Virus record (IMG/VR): IMGVR_UViG_2671181127_000010
Span: 1-10,681 of that record
Length of the DNA: 10,681 nt
Source: a virus
Taxonomy: Duplodnaviria; Heunggongvirae; Uroviricota; Caudoviricetes
Reading direction: 5' to 3' (one strand)
The translations under genes and the position numbers were made by a program. Below the pieces are notes generated by a model. That model made no database searches and had not been told where the DNA came from. It saw only the letters and a program-made list of their open reading frames with translations. Positions 1 to 10,681 of this stretch are shown here, piece after piece (the stretch's first letter is position 1; each line of letters begins with the position of its first letter).

Positions 1-1242
1 ATGGCGAGAAAAACACCCCCATTAACCACAGTGCAGATCAAAGCAGCCAGACCAGCACAAAAGGAGTACACCCTACAGGACGGTGGGGGGCTTTTTCTCC
101 TGGTCAAACCGTCCGGATCAAAACTCTGGAGATTTTCCTACTACCGACCATCGGACAAAAAAAGAATATTACTTAGTTTTGGATCGCTTGATGATGTTTC
201 CCTGGCTGATGCCAGAAAACGCCGTAGCGAGTACAGGGCGTTAATTCTTGCCGGAACTGACCCTCAGGACCACGAGAGGCAAAAACGAGAGGCAGAGGCC
301 AGAAGACAGGGGAATACGTTCGAAAATGTGGCTGCGGCATGGTATCAGGTGAAAATCAGCCAGAATCTTGCACCCAACACGATTAAAGACATCTGGCGAT
401 CGCTGGAGAAATATATATTCCCGTTCATCGGCAACACGCCAATAGATACCCTCACCGCCCGAAGGTTCGTTGAAGTGCTTACCCCCATCAAGGAACGCGG
501 CAACCTGGAAACACTCAAGCGGGTTTTACAGCGCGTTAATGAGGTAATGGATTACGCCGCCAACAGTGGGCTGATTGATGCCAATCCGGCTATGAATGTG
601 CGTAAGGCGTTCCCCTCCCCTGTAAAAAAACATATGCCAACAATCAGGCCCGAGCAGTTGCCGGAACTTATGCAGGCTTTATCCGTATCGGCAACAGAAC
701 GGCAAACCAGGCTACTTATTGAGTGGCAGCTACTGACCGTAACCCGTCCAGTTGAAGCATCGTCGGCACGCTGGGAAGAAATCGACATGGAGGCGCAACG
801 CTGGACCATACCCGCCGGACGCATGAAGATGCGCCGCGACCACGTTATCCCGCTTTGTGACCAGGCTATGGCAGTGCTGGAGGCTATGAAACCAATCAGC
901 CACCACCGCGATTATGTTTTCCCGAGTCTGAAAGACCCACAGCAGCCGATGAACAGCCAGACCGCTAACGCAGCATTACGACGCATGGGGTTCGCTGGCG
1001 TGCTGGTGTCTCATGGATTACGCGCCATATTCAGCACAGCAGCGAACGAGGAAGGATTCGAGCCGGACGTAATAGAGGCGGCACTTGCCCACGTCGACAC
1101 CAACGAAGTTAGACGGGCATACAACCGGAGCAACTACATAGAAAAACGCATCGTGCTGATGCGCTGGTGGGGCGAATTTGTCGAGGCTGCGGCGACGGGC
1201 GTAACCCTCGCCAGTGGTAAAAGGGGTATCCGAGCCGTGTAG
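1..1242 (+). CDS. int: Tyrosine recombinase / integrase, P4-family (413 aa)
   Basis: Full ORF from window position 1. N-terminus LFLLVKPSGSKLWRFSYY resembles the P4-type integrase N-terminal domain; C-terminal catalytic-type motifs HGLRAIFST and a terminal Tyr region (RAYNRSNY). Followed by alpA, the typical satellite arrangement. Confidence 0.9.
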   Translation: MARKTPPLTTVQIKAARPAQKEYTLQDGGGLFLLVKPSGSKLWRFSYYRPSDKKRILLSFGSLDDVSLADARKRRSEYRALILAGTDPQDHERQKREAEARRQGNTFENVAAAWYQVKISQNLAPNTIKDIWRSLEKYIFPFIGNTPIDTLTARRFVEVLTPIKERGNLETLKRVLQRVNEVMDYAANSGLIDANPAMNVRKAFPSPVKKHMPTIRPEQLPELMQALSVSATERQTRLLIEWQLLTVTRPVEASSARWEEIDMEAQRWTIPAGRMKMRRDHVIPLCDQAMAVLEAMKPISHHRDYVFPSLKDPQQPMNSQTANAALRRMGFAGVLVSHGLRAIFSTAANEEGFEPDVIEAALAHVDTNEVRRAYNRSNYIEKRIVLMRWWGEFVEAAATGVTLASGKRGIRAV

Positions 1243-1738: not shown

Positions 1739-1945
1739 ATGGAAGCAATCAGAAAAATTATCTTTCGCCAGGAAGTAAAAAAAATTATCCACATCAAGGC
1801 AGACAGCACGCTGCAAAGCATGATCAACGCCGGAGAATTTCCGCAGGGTTTTCGCGTTGGTTTACGCCGTCGCGGATGGTATGAGGATGATGTGTTGGCC
1901 TGGCAGAAAGAACGCGAACAGGAAGCACGCGGAACGGCTGCTTAA
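1739..1945 (+). CDS. alpA: AlpA-family (prophage CP4-57 regulatory, Vis-like) small DNA-binding regulator, 68 aa
   Basis: Size, position downstream of a P4-family integrase, and motif FRQEV...GEFPQGFRVGLRRRGWYEDDVLAW matching the AlpA pattern (RLPEV...GxFP.P.KLG.R...W...V..W). RBS AAGG 9 nt upstream. Confidence 0.75.
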   Translation: MEAIRKIIFRQEVKKIIHIKADSTLQSMINAGEFPQGFRVGLRRRGWYEDDVLAWQKEREQEARGTAA

Positions 1946-2828: not shown

Positions 2829-3386
2829 ATGGTTGCTGTAAATCATATACCACACCTTGTACACACACAAACGGCCTTTGTGTGGCGTTTTCTGGCCCTG
2901 AATATCGGAGAAAAAAACCGCTTGATCGCCACCAGCAAAAATGGCTATGATTCCCGCGCACCTCATAAAACGGGTGTCGGGATTAGCCTCCTGAAAACAA
3001 CTGAAGCGCACAGCACGCGCCCTGCGTGTTTTTTTGTGCCGCATAGTCACACCTTATCAATGGTGGGCTGTACGGGGGCGGAGCAATCCGCGCCGGTTTC
3101 TTCAGTGTCCGGTAAGGCTAACCCTGTACAGTCCGCCACCAGCGAAATTAGCCTTTTGCGTGGCGGTTATCTTAACCACACTGAGGAGGCTGCCAACATG
3201 GCTACTATCCCTACCCTTGTACATTCTCAAACCGCATTTATCTGGCGCTTTATCATCTTTGGCGCGTCAGAATCTCAAATCATCCACGTAACCGCCTGGA
3301 CGGAACGCGAAGCGCGTAGCCGTTGCCCGTCAGGTTGTGTTGCTGTATTCGCCGCCCGTATTCGTCAGGGGTCACATCATGCGTAA
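2829..3386 (+). CDS. Ash-family-like protein with C-terminal Icd-like domain (185 aa)
   Basis: RBS TAGGAG 6 nt upstream of ATG. Contains two copies of the motif VH.QTAF.WRF and a C-terminal TEREAR...VFAARIRQG block, which I recall as the signature of Ash / Icd-like small proteins of P4-type islands (family name from memory, not verified). Confidence 0.55.
   Translation: MVAVNHIPHLVHTQTAFVWRFLALNIGEKNRLIATSKNGYDSRAPHKTGVGISLLKTTEAHSTRPACFFVPHSHTLSMVGCTGAEQSAPVSSVSGKANPVQSATSEISLLRGGYLNHTEEAANMATIPTLVHSQTAFIWRFIIFGASESQIIHVTAWTEREARSRCPSGCVAVFAARIRQGSHHA
3198..3386 (+). CDS. Icd-like small protein, 62 aa: in-frame internal start inside the 2829..3386 ORF
   Basis: Strong RBS GAGGAGG 7 nt upstream of internal ATG 3198; product MATIPTLVHSQTAFIWRF...TEREARSR...VFAARIRQG is a complete Icd-like unit. 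Could be a separately translated nested product. Confidence 0.4.
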   Translation: MATIPTLVHSQTAFIWRFIIFGASESQIIHVTAWTEREARSRCPSGCVAVFAARIRQGSHHA

Positions 3387-3843
3387 AAACCGCTTGCAAA
3401 AAATTATAACGGGGCTGTATGCTTCCCCAGTCGCCCACATGGCGACCGGGTTTAGCAGCCTGAATACTACAGCGGACAGCCGCTTACATTCCGATATGCG
3501 GTTTTTTTGTGTCCGTAAACCTACCCATACCCGCATTATGGCGGGGCGTAACGGGGGAGCCTTTGCGCTCGCTGGTTCCTGTAGTGCCAGTCTGCTAACC
3601 CTGTTACGTCTCGCCACCCCGTTTAGCAGCGTAGTAGCGAGACTCCTTAATTTCACTACAGGAGCCTTTCACATGGCTGTATTCACACGCCCTTATTTTG
3701 TCTGGCGCTTTATGCAGTGCCACCACAGCAGCATTGATATTTACACCGTTACCGCAGCCACTGAACGCGAAGCCCGCGCCCAGTTGCCGCACGCACATCT
3801 GATTTTTGTCGCCCGTATTCGTCAGGGGGTGTGCCATGCCTGA
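3379..3843 (+). CDS. Ash-family-like paralog with C-terminal Icd-like domain (154 aa from ATG 3379)
   Basis: Motifs FFCVRKPTHTRIMAG (paralogous to CFFVPHSHTLSMVG in the upstream gene) and YFVWRF...TEREARAQ...IFVARIRQG. Start 3379 overlaps the upstream stop by 8 nt; the ORF-track start 3337 is probably an over-extension. Confidence 0.55.
   Translation: MRKNRLQKIITGLYASPVAHMATGFSSLNTTADSRLHSDMRFFCVRKPTHTRIMAGRNGGAFALAGSCSASLLTLLRLATPFSSVVARLLNFTTGAFHMAVFTRPYFVWRFMQCHHSSIDIYTVTAATEREARAQLPHAHLIFVARIRQGVCHA
3673..3843 (+). CDS. Icd-like small protein, 56 aa: in-frame internal start inside the 3379..3843 ORF
   Basis: RBS CAGGAG 8 nt upstream of ATG 3673; product MAVFTRPYFVWRF...TEREARAQ...VARIRQG. 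Confidence 0.35.
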   Translation: MAVFTRPYFVWRFMQCHHSSIDIYTVTAATEREARAQLPHAHLIFVARIRQGVCHA

Positions 3844-4162: not shown

Positions 4163-4462
4163 ATGAGAACATATTTATCTGGCTTGACTGCCAGCGGCCC
4201 CGCTCGGCCTGAAATCCGCCCCGGAGATATTTTCAGAGATAACTACGGTGGCGTTGTTGAGATTAAAGGCGTGGCAGAACGGCGCATTACCTACCGCCGT
4301 GAAGGCTACGAATATGATTGCGTGATGCCTGTTTATCAGTTCCGGCGTGATTTTTCTCTGGTACAGGCAGCGCCCCGCAGTAAACCAACCAGCAGGGAGA
4401 AAGCACGCGCCAATATTCAGGAAATAAGAAAGATGTTGAATGTATTCAGGGGTAAAAAATGA
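4163..4462 (+). CDS. Hypothetical protein, 99 aa, immediately upstream of and coupled to the primase
   Basis: ATG 4163; stop overlaps primase start (ATGA at 4459-4462). Basic C-terminus. Function unknown. Confidence 0.55.
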   Translation: MRTYLSGLTASGPARPEIRPGDIFRDNYGGVVEIKGVAERRITYRREGYEYDCVMPVYQFRRDFSLVQAAPRSKPTSREKARANIQEIRKMLNVFRGKK

Positions 4463-6207
4463 AACTGGCACCGAACGTAAAAAAACAACCACGCGGAATA
4501 AAACACAAAGACACAGAGGTAATTATTTTCGCGGGTAGTGATGCGTGGGCACATGCAAAACAGTGGCAGGAGCAGGACGGCCCCGCATCCGGCGATAATG
4601 TGCCGCCTGTGTGGCTTGGGCCAAATCAGCTTGCCGAACTTGATGCACTGAAAATTGTTCCTGATGGAAAAAAACGCGTAAGGCTGTACCAGGCCGGAGA
4701 ACTGGATTTGGTGGAGACCAAAAAGATTGGTCAGAAGCTGGCGGCGGCAGATATTCAGGACGCAAATTTTTACCCCGAAGGAATGCACGTCCAGAAGTGT
4801 GAAAACTGGCGGCGCTATCTGAATGCTGAGCGTGAAAATATTGCCGCAGGGCTTACCATGCCGGAGCAGAAAAATACGCAACTGGCACAAATGGCAGACA
4901 GTGAGCGCGCGCAGCTGCTTGCCGAGCGCTTTGATGGCGTTTGTGTGCATCCGGAAAGTGAAATCGTTCACGTATGGCGCGGCGGGGTATGGTGTCCGGT
5001 CAGCACAATGGAACTTAGCCGCGAAATGGTGGCGATCTATTCAGAGCACAGGGCCACTTTCAGCAAGCGCGTAATCAATAACGCCGTGGAAGCGTTAAAA
5101 GTTATTGCCGAACCAATGGGCGAGCCGTCCGGCGATTTGTTGCCGTTCGCCAATGGTGCGCTTGACCTGAAAACGGGGGAATTTTCCCCGCACACGCCGG
5201 AGAACTGGATCACCACGCACAACGGCATTGAGTACACGCCACCAGCACCAGGGGAGAATATCTGCGACAACGCGCCAAACTTTCATAAATGGCTTGAGCA
5301 CGCAGCCGGAAAAGACCCGCGCAAGATGATGCGTATATGTGCCGCGCTGTACATGATTATGGCGAACCGGTACGACTGGCAGATGTTTATTGAGGCCACC
5401 GGAGAGGGCGGTAGCGGTAAAAGTACATTCACGCACATAGCCAGCCTTCTGGCAGGGAAACAGAACACGGTAAGCGCTGAAATGACCTCACTTGATGATG
5501 CTGGTGGACGTGCGCAGGTTGTCGGGAGTCGTCTTATCGTCCTGGCTGACCAGCCGAAATATACAGGCGAAGGAACGGGCATCAAGAAAATCACGGGCGG
5601 CGACCCCGTGGAAATAAACCCGAAATATGAGAAGCGTTTTACGGCGGTAATCAGGGCGGTGGTGCTGGCTACCAACAATAACCCGATGATATTCACCGAG
5701 CGGGCCGGAGGTGTGTCACGCCGTCGGGTGATTTTCCGGTTCGACAACATTGTAAGGGAGGACGAAAAAGACAAGGATTTGCCGGAGAAGGTCGCGGCTG
5801 AAATCCCCGTAATTATCCGTCGCTTGCTGGCTAATTTTGCCGACCCTGAAAAGGCACGGGCTTTATTACTGGAACAGCGCGACGGTGATGAAGCTCTGGC
5901 AATAAAGCAACAGACGGATCCGGTTATTGAGTTTTGCCAGTTCCTGAATTTTCTGGAGGAAGCACGCGGCCTGATGATGGGCGGCGGTGGCGATTCAGTG
6001 AAGTACACGACCAGAAACAGCCTTTACCGCGTCTATCTGGCGTTTATGGCATACGCAGGCAGGAGCAAACCGCTAAACGTGGCTGAGTTCAGCAAGGCCA
6101 TGAAGACAGCGGCAAAAGTTTACGGACATGAATATATTACGCGGAGAGTTAAGGGAGTAACGCAGACCAACGCAATTACAACTGATGATTGTGACGCGTT
6201 TTTATAA
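4459..6207 (+). CDS. Replication protein: primase / D5-type SF3 NTPase (P4 alpha C-terminal-like), 582 aa
   Basis: Walker A GEGGSGKST encoded around 5401-5427 in the D5/P4-alpha-type context (phage/plasmid primase P4-family C-terminal NTPase); RBS AGGGG 7 nt upstream; followed directly by an iteron array. Confidence 0.88.
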   Translation: MKLAPNVKKQPRGIKHKDTEVIIFAGSDAWAHAKQWQEQDGPASGDNVPPVWLGPNQLAELDALKIVPDGKKRVRLYQAGELDLVETKKIGQKLAAADIQDANFYPEGMHVQKCENWRRYLNAERENIAAGLTMPEQKNTQLAQMADSERAQLLAERFDGVCVHPESEIVHVWRGGVWCPVSTMELSREMVAIYSEHRATFSKRVINNAVEALKVIAEPMGEPSGDLLPFANGALDLKTGEFSPHTPENWITTHNGIEYTPPAPGENICDNAPNFHKWLEHAAGKDPRKMMRICAALYMIMANRYDWQMFIEATGEGGSGKSTFTHIASLLAGKQNTVSAEMTSLDDAGGRAQVVGSRLIVLADQPKYTGEGTGIKKITGGDPVEINPKYEKRFTAVIRAVVLATNNNPMIFTERAGGVSRRRVIFRFDNIVREDEKDKDLPEKVAAEIPVIIRRLLANFADPEKARALLLEQRDGDEALAIKQQTDPVIEFCQFLNFLEEARGLMMGGGGDSVKYTTRNSLYRVYLAFMAYAGRSKPLNVAEFSKAMKTAAKVYGHEYITRRVKGVTQTNAITTDDCDAFL

Positions 6208-6219
6208 TTTTTTGTAAAA

Positions 6220-6446
6220 GCCCTCTACCCCATCTACCTGAATGAAATAAACGCATATTATTCAACATGATAAGTGGGTAGAGGGCTAGGTAGAAGGCTA
6301 ATAAAACCTCTCTACCTCTTCTACCATGATTAAGATCGTTTGTGAGGGGCGGGTAGAGGATGGGTAGAGGGCCACGAAAGCCCTCTACCCATCTGAAAGC
6401 CGCGCCATTACTGACATGAAAGATGATTAGGTAGAGAGGTAGAGGA
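6220..6446. repeat. Iteron array / putative replication origin (11 copies of GGTAGAGG / CCTCTACC and variants)
   Basis: Octamer copies at 6222, 6231, 6277, 6289, 6309, 6318, 6352, 6363, 6382, 6430, 6438 in both orientations; perfect 14-bp inverted repeat GATGGGTAGAGGGC (6359-6372) / GCCCTCTACCCATC (6380-6393); AT-rich segment 6239-6275 between repeat clusters. Confidence 0.7.
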
Positions 6447-6493
6447 GGTGCACCACAACCTAAAACTTTTTAAACACGAGGGTAAAAATAAAA

Positions 6494-6772
6494 ATGCACA
6501 CATCAGGAAGATTTAACAAATCACTCAAAAAACGCAAAGACAGAACAGCACCAAGATATAAAGCGCTGGAGATGACAGAGCACGCCTTAAAGGTGGCTAT
6601 AAAGGTGATAGACATCACAGCGGGAGAAGGATACTCGAAAGCACATCCCGAACTAATAAGCGCATTCATGACCACGGCGGCGGCAAACTTTGCCACGCTG
6701 ACAGAGCGGGAGATTGCAGAAGCGGAACAGGTAACAACCATCAACGTTAAAACCGGAGAGGTGGAATCATGA
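6494..6772 (+). CDS. Hypothetical protein, 92 aa
   Basis: ORF directly after the iterons; stop overlaps the SSB start (ATGA at 6769-6772); RBS-like GAGGGT about 11 nt upstream. Confidence 0.5.
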   Translation: MHTSGRFNKSLKKRKDRTAPRYKALEMTEHALKVAIKVIDITAGEGYSKAHPELISAFMTTAAANFATLTEREIAEAEQVTTINVKTGEVES

Positions 6773-7179
6773 CAGCACAGATAGCCGCTTACGGGCGGCT
6801 GGTGGACGACCCGCAGGTAAAACAGACCAGCAAGGGTACACCGATGACGCTGGCGCGTATGGCGGTATCTTTGCCATGTAGTCAGGCGCAGGATGGGCAG
6901 GCGACGTTATGGCTATCGGTCATCGCATTTGGTAAGCAGGCCGACTTCCTGGCTAAACATCAAAAAGGCGACGTTGCCAGCGTATCCGGCACGATGCAGG
7001 TCAGCCAGTGGACCGGACAGAACGGGGAAACGCGGCAGGGTTATCAGGTTATTGCAGACAGCGTAATCAGTGCCCGTGCGGCACGTCCTGGCGGGAACAG
7101 ACGCAAAACCACAGGCACACAGGGTAATCAGCCACCAGCGGGAGACGATGACCCCTACGGTGATGATATTCAGTTCTGA
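6769..7179 (+). CDS. ssb: Single-stranded DNA-binding protein (SSB family), 136 aa
   Basis: N-terminal OB-fold pattern IAAYGRLVDDPQVKQTSKGTPMTLARMAVS and LWLSVIAFGKQADFLA...QVSQWTGQNGETRQGYQV parallels E. coli SSB; Gly/Pro/Gln-rich linker; acidic C-terminal tip DDDPYGDDIQF analogous to the SSB DDDIPF tail. RBS GGAGAGG upstream. Confidence 0.8.
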   Translation: MTAQIAAYGRLVDDPQVKQTSKGTPMTLARMAVSLPCSQAQDGQATLWLSVIAFGKQADFLAKHQKGDVASVSGTMQVSQWTGQNGETRQGYQVIADSVISARAARPGGNRRKTTGTQGNQPPAGDDDPYGDDIQF

Positions 7180-7189
7180 GGGGGTGACG

Positions 7190-7462
7190 ATGGTACATGA
7201 CCGCATAGCGGAGGAACTCGAGGCAAAAGGCTTTTACCGGAGGGCATCGGCGCGATGGGGTGAAGTCATGCTGCTGGTGGAGACAGACAAGGAACGGCAT
7301 CAGGTTACGATGCGACGGCTGGAATGTTCCAGGAAGGCACAGAAGCCACCGGAGCCGCCGGATAACTTCGGAGACCTGAGAAAGGCAGTAGATCGCACTT
7401 ATGCTGAAATGGGTATAGATGGTGTAAGCGATGAAATATGGCGTAATTACCCAGACAGCTAA
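7190..7462 (+). CDS. Hypothetical protein, 90 aa
   Basis: ATG 7190 with RBS GGGGGTGA, 11 nt after the SSB stop; the ORF-track start 7070 overlaps the SSB and is an over-extension. Followed by a terminator. Confidence 0.55.
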   Translation: MVHDRIAEELEAKGFYRRASARWGEVMLLVETDKERHQVTMRRLECSRKAQKPPEPPDNFGDLRKAVDRTYAEMGIDGVSDEIWRNYPDS

Positions 7463-7468
7463 TCAACA

Positions 7469-7490
7469 GCCGGAGTAATCCGGCTTTTTT
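7469..7490 (+). terminator. Rho-independent terminator (GCCGGA-gtaa-TCCGGC plus T6)
   Basis: Perfect 6-bp GC stem, tetraloop, T-run. Confidence 0.7.
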
Positions 7491-7496
7491 GTACCC

Positions 7497-7540
7497 AAAA
7501 AAAGCCCGATAAGTACAGGAGGCATCTTATCGGGCTTTTG
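7497..7540. terminator. Second hairpin, potentially bidirectional terminator (A-run, GCCCGATAAG ... CTTATCGGGC, T-run)
   Basis: Perfect 10-bp stem at 7504-7513 / 7526-7535, flanked by A7 upstream and T4 downstream. Confidence 0.5.
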
Positions 7541-7573: not shown

Positions 7574-7666
7574 TGATCGGGATCATCATTTCATAATTTG
7601 CAACACAACTCAACATCATTGCATAAAATGCAATCATGATTATAATCAGATCTGGATGAACATCCA
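7574..7666 (+). promoter_or_regulatory. Sigma70-type promoter with overlapping palindromic operators, upstream of the capsid module
   Basis: TTGCAT (7619-7624), 16-bp spacer, TATAAT (7641-7646). Palindromes: TGATCggGATCA 7574-7585; TTGCAT-aaa-ATGCAA 7619-7633 over the -35; TGATTATAATCA 7637-7648 over the -10; CTGGATG-aa-CATCCAG 7651-7666 at the predicted transcript start. Confidence 0.55.
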
Positions 7667-7702
7667 GTTATGATTTTTTAAGTCAAAGAGGAATTTCTTA
7701 CT

Positions 7703-9323: not shown

Positions 9324-9737
9324 ATGGCAACGAATGAAAGCATCATGGCGCTACCGCTGGCGAGTAAATTTAAAGAAGAAGCGCGGGCAATGGCTGACAG
9401 AGGTTTATCAACCTACGAGGCCGTATATCAACTCAACAAACTGGAAGAGCAGGACAAGCCGCGCGCTGATGCGATTATGGCGCTTCATGAGCATAAAGAC
9501 TATCAGCCGCTGTTACGTGCAATGGCAAACGTGCCATGTATTAGCGTCGATAATGCTCGTGAAATCCTGAACATGACCATAGAGCAGGAGCGCCCAAAGG
9601 TTGCACCAGAGCTTACCGCAGCCTTTGAAAACTTTATGGACATGCACAGCCCGCAAGCCGTATCAGCTGGCATGGCATACGATGGCAGAAACCAGGGCGA
9701 TGACGGCGACATCGATCGCATACTGAAAACCATCTGA
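9324..9737 (+). CDS. Hypothetical protein, 137 aa, last gene of the capsid module
   Basis: RBS GGGGGA 5 nt upstream; acidic C-terminus; followed by a terminator and a cos site. No confident motif. Confidence 0.6.
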   Translation: MATNESIMALPLASKFKEEARAMADRGLSTYEAVYQLNKLEEQDKPRADAIMALHEHKDYQPLLRAMANVPCISVDNAREILNMTIEQERPKVAPELTAAFENFMDMHSPQAVSAGMAYDGRNQGDDGDIDRILKTI

Positions 9738-9743
9738 GACAAG

Positions 9744-9767
9744 GCCGGAGAAATCCGGCTTTTTTTT
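9744..9767 (+). terminator. Rho-independent terminator (GCCGGA-gaaa-TCCGGC plus T8)
   Basis: Perfect 6-bp stem, tetraloop, 8 T residues; near-identical to the hairpin at 7469-7490. Confidence 0.7.
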
Positions 9768-9768
9768 A

Positions 9769-9840
9769 CGGGTCCTTTCCGGCATATGGACCCGTTACGG
9801 GGCGGCGACCTCGCGGTTTTTCGCTATTTATGAGATTTTT
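9769..9840 (+). other. Lambda-type cos site, copy L (cosN core GGGCGGCGACCT at 9800-9811, cosB side to the right)
   Basis: 9800-9838 reads GGGCGGCGACCTCGCGGTTTTTCGCTATTTATGAGATTT, close to the lambda genome left end GGGCGGCGACCTCGCGGGTTTTCGCTATTTATGAAAATTTTCCGG. Preceded by a hairpin ACGGGTCC...GGACCCGT. Confidence 0.75.
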
Positions 9841-10187
9841 TGAGGGGGTGGTTGTTGTTTAATTGTTTGGTATATCTAATTGATAAGTAAGGTAAAAATA
9901 AAATAAATACAACAACCTTACGATGTATTTTGATGTCATTAATGTGAAAAAATTCAATGATATCAAATGGTTTTGTAAAAACACATGGTTGTTGTATCGC
10001 GTATTTGATGGCGTAACAGAAAGTGATTTTTAACTTTACCGCTCTGTAACTACGGATTATTCCATGCTGGCACGGAGAACGGCTACGGCATGACGCCACC
10101 CAGCCTATACAGAACAGTAAAGCCGATAAATTGTTAATCACGCGCAGCAATGCGTGTGATTTTTGCACACTTCCGGTTAACTGGTAC

Positions 10188-10286
10188 GATGTCCGGTTTT
10201 AGTGTCTGTTTTTTGCGCATGTCCGGTTCATGGAAAGCATGTTTTTATATTTTTCATATGGTTAACTTGCAGAGAAACCGGACATG
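10188..10286. repeat. Candidate cosB R-type elements for the R cos site (ATGTCCGGTT repeats)
   Basis: ATGTCCGGTT at 10189-10198 and 10219-10228 (direct), inverted copy AACCGGACATG at 10276-10286, partial copy TCCGGTT at 10172-10178; positioned about 40, 100 and 130 bp from the R cosN, resembling the R3/R2/R1 layout of lambda cosB as I recall it. Confidence 0.4.
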
Positions 10287-10292
10287 GATCCC

Positions 10293-10370
10293 GGAAAATT
10301 TTCATAAATAGTGAAAACGCGCGAGGTCGCCGCCCCGTAACGGGCCATAATTCCAGGAAGGACCCGACGA
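10293..10370 (-). other. Lambda-type cos site, copy R (cosN core at 10324-10335 on the minus strand, cosB side to the left)
   Basis: Reverse complement of 10293-10335 reads GGGCGGCGACCTCGCGCGTTTTCACTATTTATGAAAATTTTCCGG, two mismatches from the lambda left-end sequence over 45 nt. Forms a roughly 70-bp imperfect inverted repeat with copy L. Confidence 0.8.
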
Positions 10371-10399
10371 CACCAGACTATCAGAGCGATGGGGGCACA

Positions 10400-10681
10400 A
10401 TGACAGAAGCCGAACTACTGGGATTAATCCGCCGCGTCGCCGGAATCAGCCAGCAGCATGACGAACAGGCCACACAGCCGGACAGCGTGACCGCTGAAAA
10501 TTATGTGCGTGTTGTAGCGGAAGTGATGCGCCGTGATGGTATAGAACTTAATGGCGTTGATATGCGCAACATACGGAACCGCGTTCTTGAAATGCTGGCC
10601 TACAATCGCCGCGTTGAACTGTATCGGGAGAAAGAAAAAATAACGTACCACTGGAAGAAGCCGGAACGGCTGCGGCGGTAA
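10400..10681 (+). CDS. Hypothetical small basic protein, 93 aa, adjacent to the R cos site
   Basis: ATG 10400 with G-rich RBS; the ORF-track extension from 10202 runs through the cos site and is rejected. Ends at the window edge with TAA. Function unknown. Confidence 0.5.
   Translation: MTEAELLGLIRRVAGISQQHDEQATQPDSVTAENYVRVVAEVMRRDGIELNGVDMRNIRNRVLEMLAYNRRVELYREKEKITYHWKKPERLRR

Follow-up and report, generated by a model that had tools for sequence, protein, structure and literature searches.

A predicted orf92-ssb-pchE operon downstream of the replication origin in an EcCICFT073-type PICI

Results

Gene content of the locus

[quoted passage not shown] An earlier interpretation of this DNA, made without database searches (the sequence-only reading), had placed these genes between the origin and a capsid module, and that placement is confirmed. 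All the named genes of the window are co-oriented on the + strand. The orf92 and ssb reading frames overlap by 4 nt in an ATGA stop/start, the ATG of ssb overlapping the TGA of orf92, and the junction sequence (GGAGAGGTGGAATCATGA) is identical in E. coli CFT073 and Sakai; the conserved overlap agrees with the translational coupling that had been proposed for ssb and the upstream ORF. The start codon of the third gene lies 10 nt past the SSB stop and is preceded by GAGGGGG. The 90-aa ORF is followed, as had also been described, by a double hairpin, and none of 200 shuffled sequences proved as stable as the two-hairpin fold (-35.3 kcal/mol, z = -4.2). With its flanking A-run and T-run, the second hairpin could terminate transcription in both directions.

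Table 1. Features of the window, with positions, strand and basis of assignment
Feature	Position	Strand	Basis and remarks
Integrase	1-1242	+	Pfam; P4-type, at one end of the island
AlpA-like HTH	1739-1945	+	Pfam 17.6 bits, weak, below the 21-bit cutoff
pri, initiator-helicase, 582 aa	4459-6207	+	Pfam D5_N, DUF5906, Pox_D5; TIGR01613
Iteron-type replication origin	6215-6450	both orientations	GGGTAGAGG/CCTCTACCC copies
orf92, 92-aa ORF	6494-6772	+	PHROG 1231; homolog of ECs_1586 (Sakai)
ssb, 136 aa	6769-7179	+	PF00436, TIGR00621
pchE, PerC-family transcriptional regulator, 90 aa	7190-7462	+	PF06069
Intrinsic terminator 1	7468-7491	+	Hairpin 7468-7485, 7-bp GC-rich stem, then TTTTTT
Hairpin 2	7500-7539	+	14-bp stem, 5′ A-run, 3′ T-run
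Lambda cosN 12-mers, exact	9800-9811; 10324-10335	+; -	0.04 expected by chance

Identity and distribution of the element

A 1.5-kb region of the locus has a 98%-identical copy within an island inserted at tRNA-Pro, in the yejM/yejO interval. Its genes are annotated, in order, as integrase, HTH regulator, Ash, Icd-like, DUF4222, DNA primase, a hypothetical protein, SSB, PerC regulator, a second hypothetical protein, major capsid and head decoration; with ~10.5 kb and a specific chromosomal attachment site, the island fits the 10-20 kb size range of Gram-negative PICIs. The AlpA-like protein of the window, a weak Pfam match, has a homolog annotated as an HTH regulator in RefSeq. Upstream lie P4-type immunity RNAs, comprising two C4 RNAs (75.4 and 72.2 bits) and one isrK RNA (63.6 bits), all above their gathering scores, and RNAs of both kinds have previously been recorded in Gram-negative PICIs (Mageeney et al. 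2023).

Sid, Psu and Delta yielded zero Pfam matches among the scanned ORFs, the region being filled by homologs of capsid E and decoration D, and membership in the P4 group was rejected in favor of a PICI. Based on a gene order shared with EcCICFT073 and on high protein identities to it, on the lambda cosN sites and on the absence of Sid, Psu and Delta from the scanned ORFs, sequence comparison firmly indicates a Gram-negative PICI of the EcCICFT073 type, rather than a P4-type satellite, and the identification of its genes is equally firm at this level. The sequence-only reading had considered an island-borne SSB unexpected from P4. That is correct for P4, but P4 is the wrong yardstick for an EcCICFT073-type PICI, in which an SSB gene after the origin is the norm. 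Induction by a helper phage, replication and transfer have been demonstrated for EcCICFT073 only (Fillol-Salom et al. 2018). When the trio was compared, along with five further small ORFs, with the PADLOC models of anti-phage defence, 0 families matched, and a known defence system was rejected as an identity for these genes; a homolog of Rpp was likewise not found in the window.

The locus is widely distributed. Homologs of ssb were found in about a third of the complete E. coli genomes searched (1783 of 5426) and homologs of orf92 in 1617 of them, with annotations reading 'hypothetical protein' and 'single-stranded DNA-binding protein' in succession. All three window proteins are present as exact copies in public databases, and the exact SSB, including its DDIQF terminus, occurs on 87 contigs. 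A survey of PICIs places SSB in the 'Replication' category, colocalized with the primase and the origin (Mageeney et al. 2023).

Origin of replication and transcription of the operon

The Pri protein encoded upstream of the origin is 89% identical to that of CFT073. Its matches in the PDB are to the SF3-helicase part of SaPI5 PriRep5 (7OLA, residues 398-649) and to the origin-binding C-terminal domain of the P4 alpha protein (1KA8); a primase domain was not detectable in Pri, which matches the solved primase-helicases in their helicase and origin-binding parts only. The repeats of the predicted origin fall into four families (D1-D4) and form 15 inverted pairs. The position of this origin, just 3′ of pri, is that of the experimentally tested EcCICFT073 origin, for which a pri-ori fragment suffices to support plasmid replication in E. 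coli (Fillol-Salom et al. 2018). Since pri-ori alone replicates a plasmid, SSB can be at most an enhancer of replication.

Sequence conservation identifies orf92-ssb-pchE as a putative three-gene operon that is conserved after the origin in E. coli PICIs of the EcCICFT073 and Sakai Sp7 type. In O157:H7 strain PA20, RNA-seq and 5′RACE have shown a polycistronic ECs1586-ECs1587-pchE RNA that starts 10 nt upstream of ECs1586 and is weakly expressed when no inducer is present. A promoter fusion that included the 1067 nt preceding pchE showed activity in uninduced cells, which dropped about threefold under the SOS inducer SMX-TM (Andreozzi & Uhlich 2020). This pattern, in which the O157:H7 promoter is active before induction and falls under an SOS inducer, fits a function in the resident state better than one confined to induced replication.

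In the window, the sequence directly 5′ of orf92 is unlike that of Sakai, so the start site mapped in O157:H7 may not transfer to this island. A consensus scan of the + strand upstream of orf92 returned no sigma-70 promoter. A terminator scan of the + strand between positions 3030 and 7468 returned no strong terminator-like site and only two weak ones, at 5117-5131 (within pri) and 6848-6864 (within ssb), neither of which is followed by a clean T-run. Because the stretch from pri to the trio has no strong terminator and no sigma-70 site was found 5′ of orf92, we infer that read-through from the pri operon into the trio is likely to take place on induction, in addition to any transcription from an operon promoter.

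The single-stranded DNA-binding protein

Database search upholds the assignment of the 136-aa product as an SSB homolog, with scores of 62.6 bits against PF00436 (cutoff 26) and 58.1 bits against TIGR00621 (cutoff 53.95) and with matches to 25 SSBs in the PDB. The protein is 98% identical both to the EcCICFT073 SSB (WP_000126698.1, 133/136) and to Sakai ECs_1587. Identity to E. coli SSB over the OB domain is 26%. In E. coli SSB, ssDNA stacks on the aromatic residues W40, W54, F60 and W88; W48, F54 and W81 of the window SSB align with W54, F60 and W88, and equivalents of W40 and H55 are absent. The OB domain is followed by a Gly/Pro/Gln-rich linker of ~30 residues and by the C-terminus DDDPYGDDIQF, the acidic DDIQF tip having been read correctly from the start.

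Comparison across the SSB clade indicates that this tip is a lineage variant of a conserved family sequence. Ends in I-P-F are found in 108 of 113 full-length cluster representatives, the tips of which include DDIPF (72), DNIPF (26), DGIPF (4) and DDISF (5), and IQF is absent among 120 SSB cluster representatives. The window protein retains the acidic residues and the terminal Phe and carries Gln in place of the conserved Pro, departing in this way from DDIPF. The conservation of the tip throughout the family would imply a working partner-binding tail. In E. coli, the ssb-113 mutation (P176S) alters the Pro of the tip and weakens the binding of partner proteins. Because Gln occupies the residue altered in ssb-113, the IQF form may be expected to bind partners more weakly, not more strongly, and the substitution may weaken their recruitment by the window SSB. 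The rest of the ORF is under constraint, as codon comparison with CFT073, Sakai and the nearest relative yields 6-8 synonymous against 3 non-synonymous differences and an unchanged OB domain.

Close relatives of the module were also sought in a collection of 50,697 phage records. Megablast returned zero matches for the module; tblastn searches matched the SSB at no more than 35% identity and in no enterobacterial phage, and they returned no match for orf92. A close phage origin for the module was consequently rejected. The literature searched contained no experimental study of the 92-aa protein or of an SSB from any PICI.

The 92-aa protein

The sequence-only reading had described both proteins flanking SSB as devoid of recognizable motifs, and for the 92-aa protein this description holds in Pfam and NCBIfam, which returned no match. 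The protein belongs to PHROG 1231, a family of unknown function (E = 3.6e-47), and has no match among PDB sequences. It combines a conserved core (GEGYxKAHPELISAFMTTAAANF) with a basic N-terminal tail; in E. coli, residues 28-89 are highly conserved and the tail varies among lineages. Among 1.84 billion representatives searched exhaustively, 51 relatives were identified, which have in common the motif ID..FGEGYAKAHPELIAAFM.TAA. When 37 members of the family were scanned against Pfam, a single match emerged, at chance level. P0297, a protein of 899 aa with 13 matched stretches, was rejected as a relative because it is a repetitive artefact.

An AF2 model computed from the family alignment predicts a helical hairpin with helices at residues 18-43 and 52-80 (pLDDT 80.9, and above 90 at residues 21-70), an earlier model having been poor (pLDDT 67). 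Foldseek comparison of the model to the PDB yielded nothing under E = 3, and the matches in BFVD were uncharacterised phage proteins only.

Clues to the role of the family come from genomic context alone. Homologs from Nitrosomonas and Desulfobulbaceae reside inside int-alpA-X-primase elements. IMG/VR contigs contain 96 loci that encode a relative of orf92, and at 48 of these 96 loci a total of 24 non-redundant proteins of at least 430 aa are encoded within three genes of the homolog. Counted per family, with the possibility that a single protein carries several of the domains, these large neighbors match Toprim_3 and Zn_Ribbon_Prim (5), DUF927 (4), VapE (3), DUF5906 (3), Prim-Pol (2) and DNA_pol_A (2). 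The large genes around orf92 homologs are thus mostly those of primase-helicases and other replication proteins. The gene immediately downstream of distant homologs varies, being a Q antiterminator in 3 of 25 cases and SSB in 1 of 25, and in Neomegalonema a few homologs lie between genes for CoA-transferase subunits, a non-mobile context. From these counts, the family tracks primase-helicase modules and not SSB, and the coupling of orf92 to SSB appears to be specific to enterobacterial PICIs. The candidacy of orf92 as an SSB-specific partner is weakened by the single SSB among the 25 downstream neighbors. Distant relatives, then, are usually not found beside SSB and in some cases lie outside mobile elements, an observation that counts against the accessory replication role favored below.

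The 90-aa protein

The other half of the description, that the 90-aa protein lacks motifs, does not stand. The protein matches PF06069 (PerC) with E = 5.1e-45 and 152.1 bits (cutoff 22.6), the match extending over residues 1-89 of 90 and model positions 1-89 of 90. It is identical at 89 of 90 residues to PchE (ECs_1588) of E. coli O157:H7 Sakai, which is encoded at the same genomic position, and a homolog is annotated as a PerC family regulator in RefSeq. Similarity at this level identifies the gene as pchE, which is predicted to encode a PerC-family regulator. PchE acts negatively on curli and adhesion and positively on flagella (Andreozzi & Uhlich 2020). Regulators of this family are common in Gram-negative PICIs; the PICI homologs fail to activate LEE1, which one of them represses (Pick et al. 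2025).

Discussion

The explanation that we favor, and to which we assign a reasonable probability, is that the locus is a PICI operon, orf92-ssb-pchE, in which the SSB acts as an accessory replication protein. On induction of the island, Pri, as an iteron-binding helicase of the SF3 type, would unwind the origin, and the island SSB would coat the single strands exposed there. The D-x-I-P-F tip carried by most members of the family would then recruit host partners, among them the chi subunit of Pol III, DnaG and PriA, and an SSB of its own would free a fast-replicating element from dependence on the limited host pool. The 92-aa protein would be a helical-hairpin accessory of the replication module, the relatives of which travel with primase-helicase genes, and in E. 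coli islands translational coupling would keep the ratio of orf92 to SSB fixed. PchE would be a host-directed regulator that shares its transcript with orf92 and ssb. The sequence-only reading had offered support of island replication as one possible role of the SSB, and it is still the most plausible one; for this component taken separately we lean only slightly towards the affirmative. The role is inferred rather than observed because pri-ori works without SSB and because the operon is active while the island is resident, and the published data on EcCICFT073 speak against the SSB being essential.

The main rival is a resident-state operon acting in lysogenic conversion, in which the trio is expressed in the quiescent island and is directed mainly at the host, with PchE retuning adhesion and motility and with SSB and orf92 acting on host DNA metabolism or keeping the origin quiet instead of serving induced replication. 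The uninduced activity and roughly threefold repression by SMX-TM of the ECs1586-ECs1587-pchE transcript and promoter fusion, the host targets of PchE and the capacity of pri-ori to replicate without SSB all point in this direction. Against it, many PICIs carry their SSB gene immediately next to the origin and the primase gene, primase-helicase genes accompany the relatives of orf92 in unrelated phages, and a host phenotype for the SSB has not been reported; we judge a mainly host-directed trio rather unlikely. The resident-state and replication readings are compatible and do not exclude one another. A further and tentative proposal, which we hold to be doubtful, is that orf92 represents an unrecognised and widespread family of small helical-hairpin proteins that travel with primase-helicase genes in phages, satellites and integrative elements. 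Its members may be replication accessories, for instance adaptors that link the self-loading helicase to SSB or to host primase, and in E. coli PICIs the family would have become translationally coupled to a dedicated SSB. A second SSB with a variable partner-binding tip, expressed at low levels in the resident state, could in addition alter host DNA metabolism.

Interference with the helper and decay of the window copy are less likely than a host-directed role. The sequence-only reading had suggested that the acidic tail might titrate SSB-interacting proteins of the host or helper. As a decoy of this kind, the tip would soak up SSB-dependent proteins and thereby harm the replication or recombination of the helper. 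The family tip DDIPF does copy that of E. coli SSB, and with its short linker and an OB domain that has diverged to 26% identity the protein might bind DNA and partners independently of each other. Nevertheless, when post-origin genes of EcCICFT073 were expressed singly, only c1503 (Rpp) inhibited lambda, and deletion of c1503 restored lambda plating (Fillol-Salom et al. 2019). These results argue against helper interference by SSB or its neighbors, at least for lambda, and combined with the Gln that replaces the conserved Pro in the window tip and with the absence of any matching PADLOC model they lead us to set the suggestion aside as quite improbable. The same substitution admits another interpretation, under which the SSB is losing function in the window lineage and is retained as a passenger by its position between orf92 and pchE in one transcript. 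The absence of IQF from the 120 cluster representatives would be consistent with such decay, as would the occurrence of ISF (5), DGIPF and DNIPF variants and of a Shigella copy with an ssb-perC deletion; the intact ORF found in exact form on 87 contigs, the mostly synonymous codon differences and the unchanged OB domain all speak for a maintained gene and make decay very improbable. We therefore retain an operon that includes an accessory replication SSB as the best overall explanation.

The trio is already known and annotated as an ordinary component of satellites whose class has been well studied. Since thousands of genomes already carry its annotation and the best-studied Gram-negative PICI contains it, the finding of an SSB adds little in itself. 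What the analysis contributes is a correction of annotation: the last of the three genes encodes PchE, which in EHEC regulates curli, adhesion and flagella and shares its transcript with an SSB of the replication type. The residual interest of the locus lies in what PICI SSBs and the 92-aa family do, and the EcCICFT073 genetic system is suited to the study of both.

Comparison with known systems

The window shares with P4 a P4-type integrase, an alpha-like C-terminal origin-binding domain, C4/isrK-type RNAs, an AlpA-like regulator and the use of helper cos sites. P4 differs in Sid, Psu and Delta, which are unmatched in the scanned ORFs of the window, and the window in its capsid and decoration homologs; none of the P4 records in the phage collection matches the SSB or orf92. 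With the chromosomal and conjugative-plasmid SSBs of E. coli, the window SSB has in common a single OB fold, a Gly/Pro/Gln-rich linker and an acidic I-x-F tip, and it is distinguished by its length (136 aa, versus 178 aa for E. coli SSB) and its penultimate Gln.

The closest studied element is EcCICFT073 (Fillol-Salom et al. 2018, 2019), which has the same order of DUF4222, pri, iteron origin, small ORF, SSB, PerC, 68-aa ORF, capsid, decoration and 137-aa ORF. In addition to the SSB (98%) and Pri (89%), the lambda E-type capsid (95%) and D-type decoration (97%) proteins are highly similar in the two elements, and both elements contain lambda cosN 12-mers, with two cos sites reported in EcCICFT073 and two present in the window. 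Deletion of the capsid or decoration gene leaves transfer of EcCICFT073 unaffected (Fillol-Salom et al. 2018). The integrases differ (24% identity), as do the attachment sites, which are roxA-phoQ for EcCICFT073 and tRNA-Pro/yejM-yejO for the nearest relative of the window. Within the trio, orf92 is 74% identical and has a different N-terminus, PerC differs in its longer C-terminus, and the SSB tip is IQF in the window and IPF in EcCICFT073; EcCICFT073 also encodes Rpp (c1503), for which the window has no homolog. The prophage-like Sp7 of Sakai has the trio in the same order after the primase (ECs_1586, ECs_1587 ssb, ECs_1588 pchE), with PchE identical at 89 of 90 residues, SSB 98% identical and the 4-nt overlap preserved. 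Sp7 belongs to the capsid-forming PICI type and carries HK97-type capsid, protease, portal and terminase genes, whereas the window carries homologs of lambda E and D. The presence of the trio alongside HK97-type genes in Sp7 indicates that the module is common to different types of PICI.

Exchange of the orf-ssb-pchE module

The arrangement of a small ORF, ssb and pchE recurs in Sp7 of O157:H7 Sakai (L094:11104-12045, the Sakai sequence), an element of the capsid-forming PICI type whose genes include an HK97-type capsid, a protease, a portal and a terminase. Since the trio is shared with an element of a different morphogenesis type, we conclude that the module passes by exchange between PICI classes differing in morphogenesis genes and integrases. 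In the Shigella flexneri island copy (L004:6001-6767), a deletion fuses SSB codons 1-25 to PerC codons 54-87, with the 92-aa gene still intact.

The SSB tip varies across the clade, for which the consensus is D-D/N-I-P-F. The window protein ends in DDIQF (7162-7176) and this exact IQF-tipped protein is present on 87 contigs, the Sakai SSB ends in DGIPF, and five cluster representatives carry an ISF tip, the change also present in E. coli ssb-113. Distant homologs of the 92-aa protein occur in Neomegalonema MAGs, flanked by genes that, judged by their translations, appear to encode the A and B subunits of a 3-oxoacid CoA-transferase; tblastn with the window's proteins detected no mobile-element genes near them (L009, L012).

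Coordinates of sequence features in the window and of distant homologs of the 92-aa protein
Feature	Location	Strand	Remark
isrK RNA	window 2958-3034		Rfam match above gathering score
C4 antisense RNA, copy 1	window 3056-3143		Rfam match above gathering score
C4 antisense RNA, copy 2	window 3534-3621		Rfam match above gathering score
Candidate -35, TTGCAT	window 7619-7624		16-nt spacer to -10
Candidate -10, TATAAT	window 7641-7646		perfect
lambda cosN 12-mer, GGGCGGCGACCT	window 9800-9811	+	exact
lambda cosN 12-mer, GGGCGGCGACCT	window 10324-10335	-	exact
92-aa protein homolog	L009:5992-6252		distant; Neomegalonema MAG
92-aa protein homolog	L012:6001-6264		distant; Neomegalonema MAG

Replication and regulatory elements

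No primase catalytic domain was detectable in the 'DNA primase family protein' (4459-6207), for which alignments were confined to two regions of other proteins, the SF3 helicase portion of SaPI5 PriRep5 (residues 398-649 of 7OLA) and, in P4 alpha, the winged-helix domain that binds the ori (1KA8). Judged by their Rfam matches, the isrK and two C4 elements are P4 CI/seqA-type immunity RNAs carried within a PICI, in a region (2958-3621) overlapping an Ash-family ORF (2829-3386).

The -35 and -10 boxes at 7619-7646, missed by a consensus promoter scan, form a candidate promoter from which the capsid operon may be transcribed. The -35 box is overlapped by the inverted repeat TTGCAT-AAA-ATGCAA (7619-7633), and a small hairpin with a T-rich run (7652-7667) lies directly 3'; such an arrangement would be compatible with read-through under regulation. 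The 137-aa ORF 3' of the decoration gene (9324-9737) has its better match in PHROG 1999 and a weaker one at the C-terminus of the head-maturation protease PHROG 53 (positions 494-567 of 583), and may be a Nu3-like scaffold remnant.

Comparison with EcCICFT073

Comparison of 9740-10400 with the corresponding place in CFT073 (L003:16660-17094) showed that the window lacks a counterpart of Rpp, the interference protein. At that place CFT073 has a 144-aa gene, which matches 6HLK, the structure of RppC, at E = 5e-31. Searches of PDB, Pfam and PADLOC with the final ORF of the window (10400-10681, 93 aa) gave no match. The AT-rich stretch of ~500 bp between the two inverted cosN 12-mers holds no convincing gene, and a further copy with one mismatch lies within pri (5595-5606). 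Two cos sites, cos1 and cos2, have likewise been reported for EcCICFT073.
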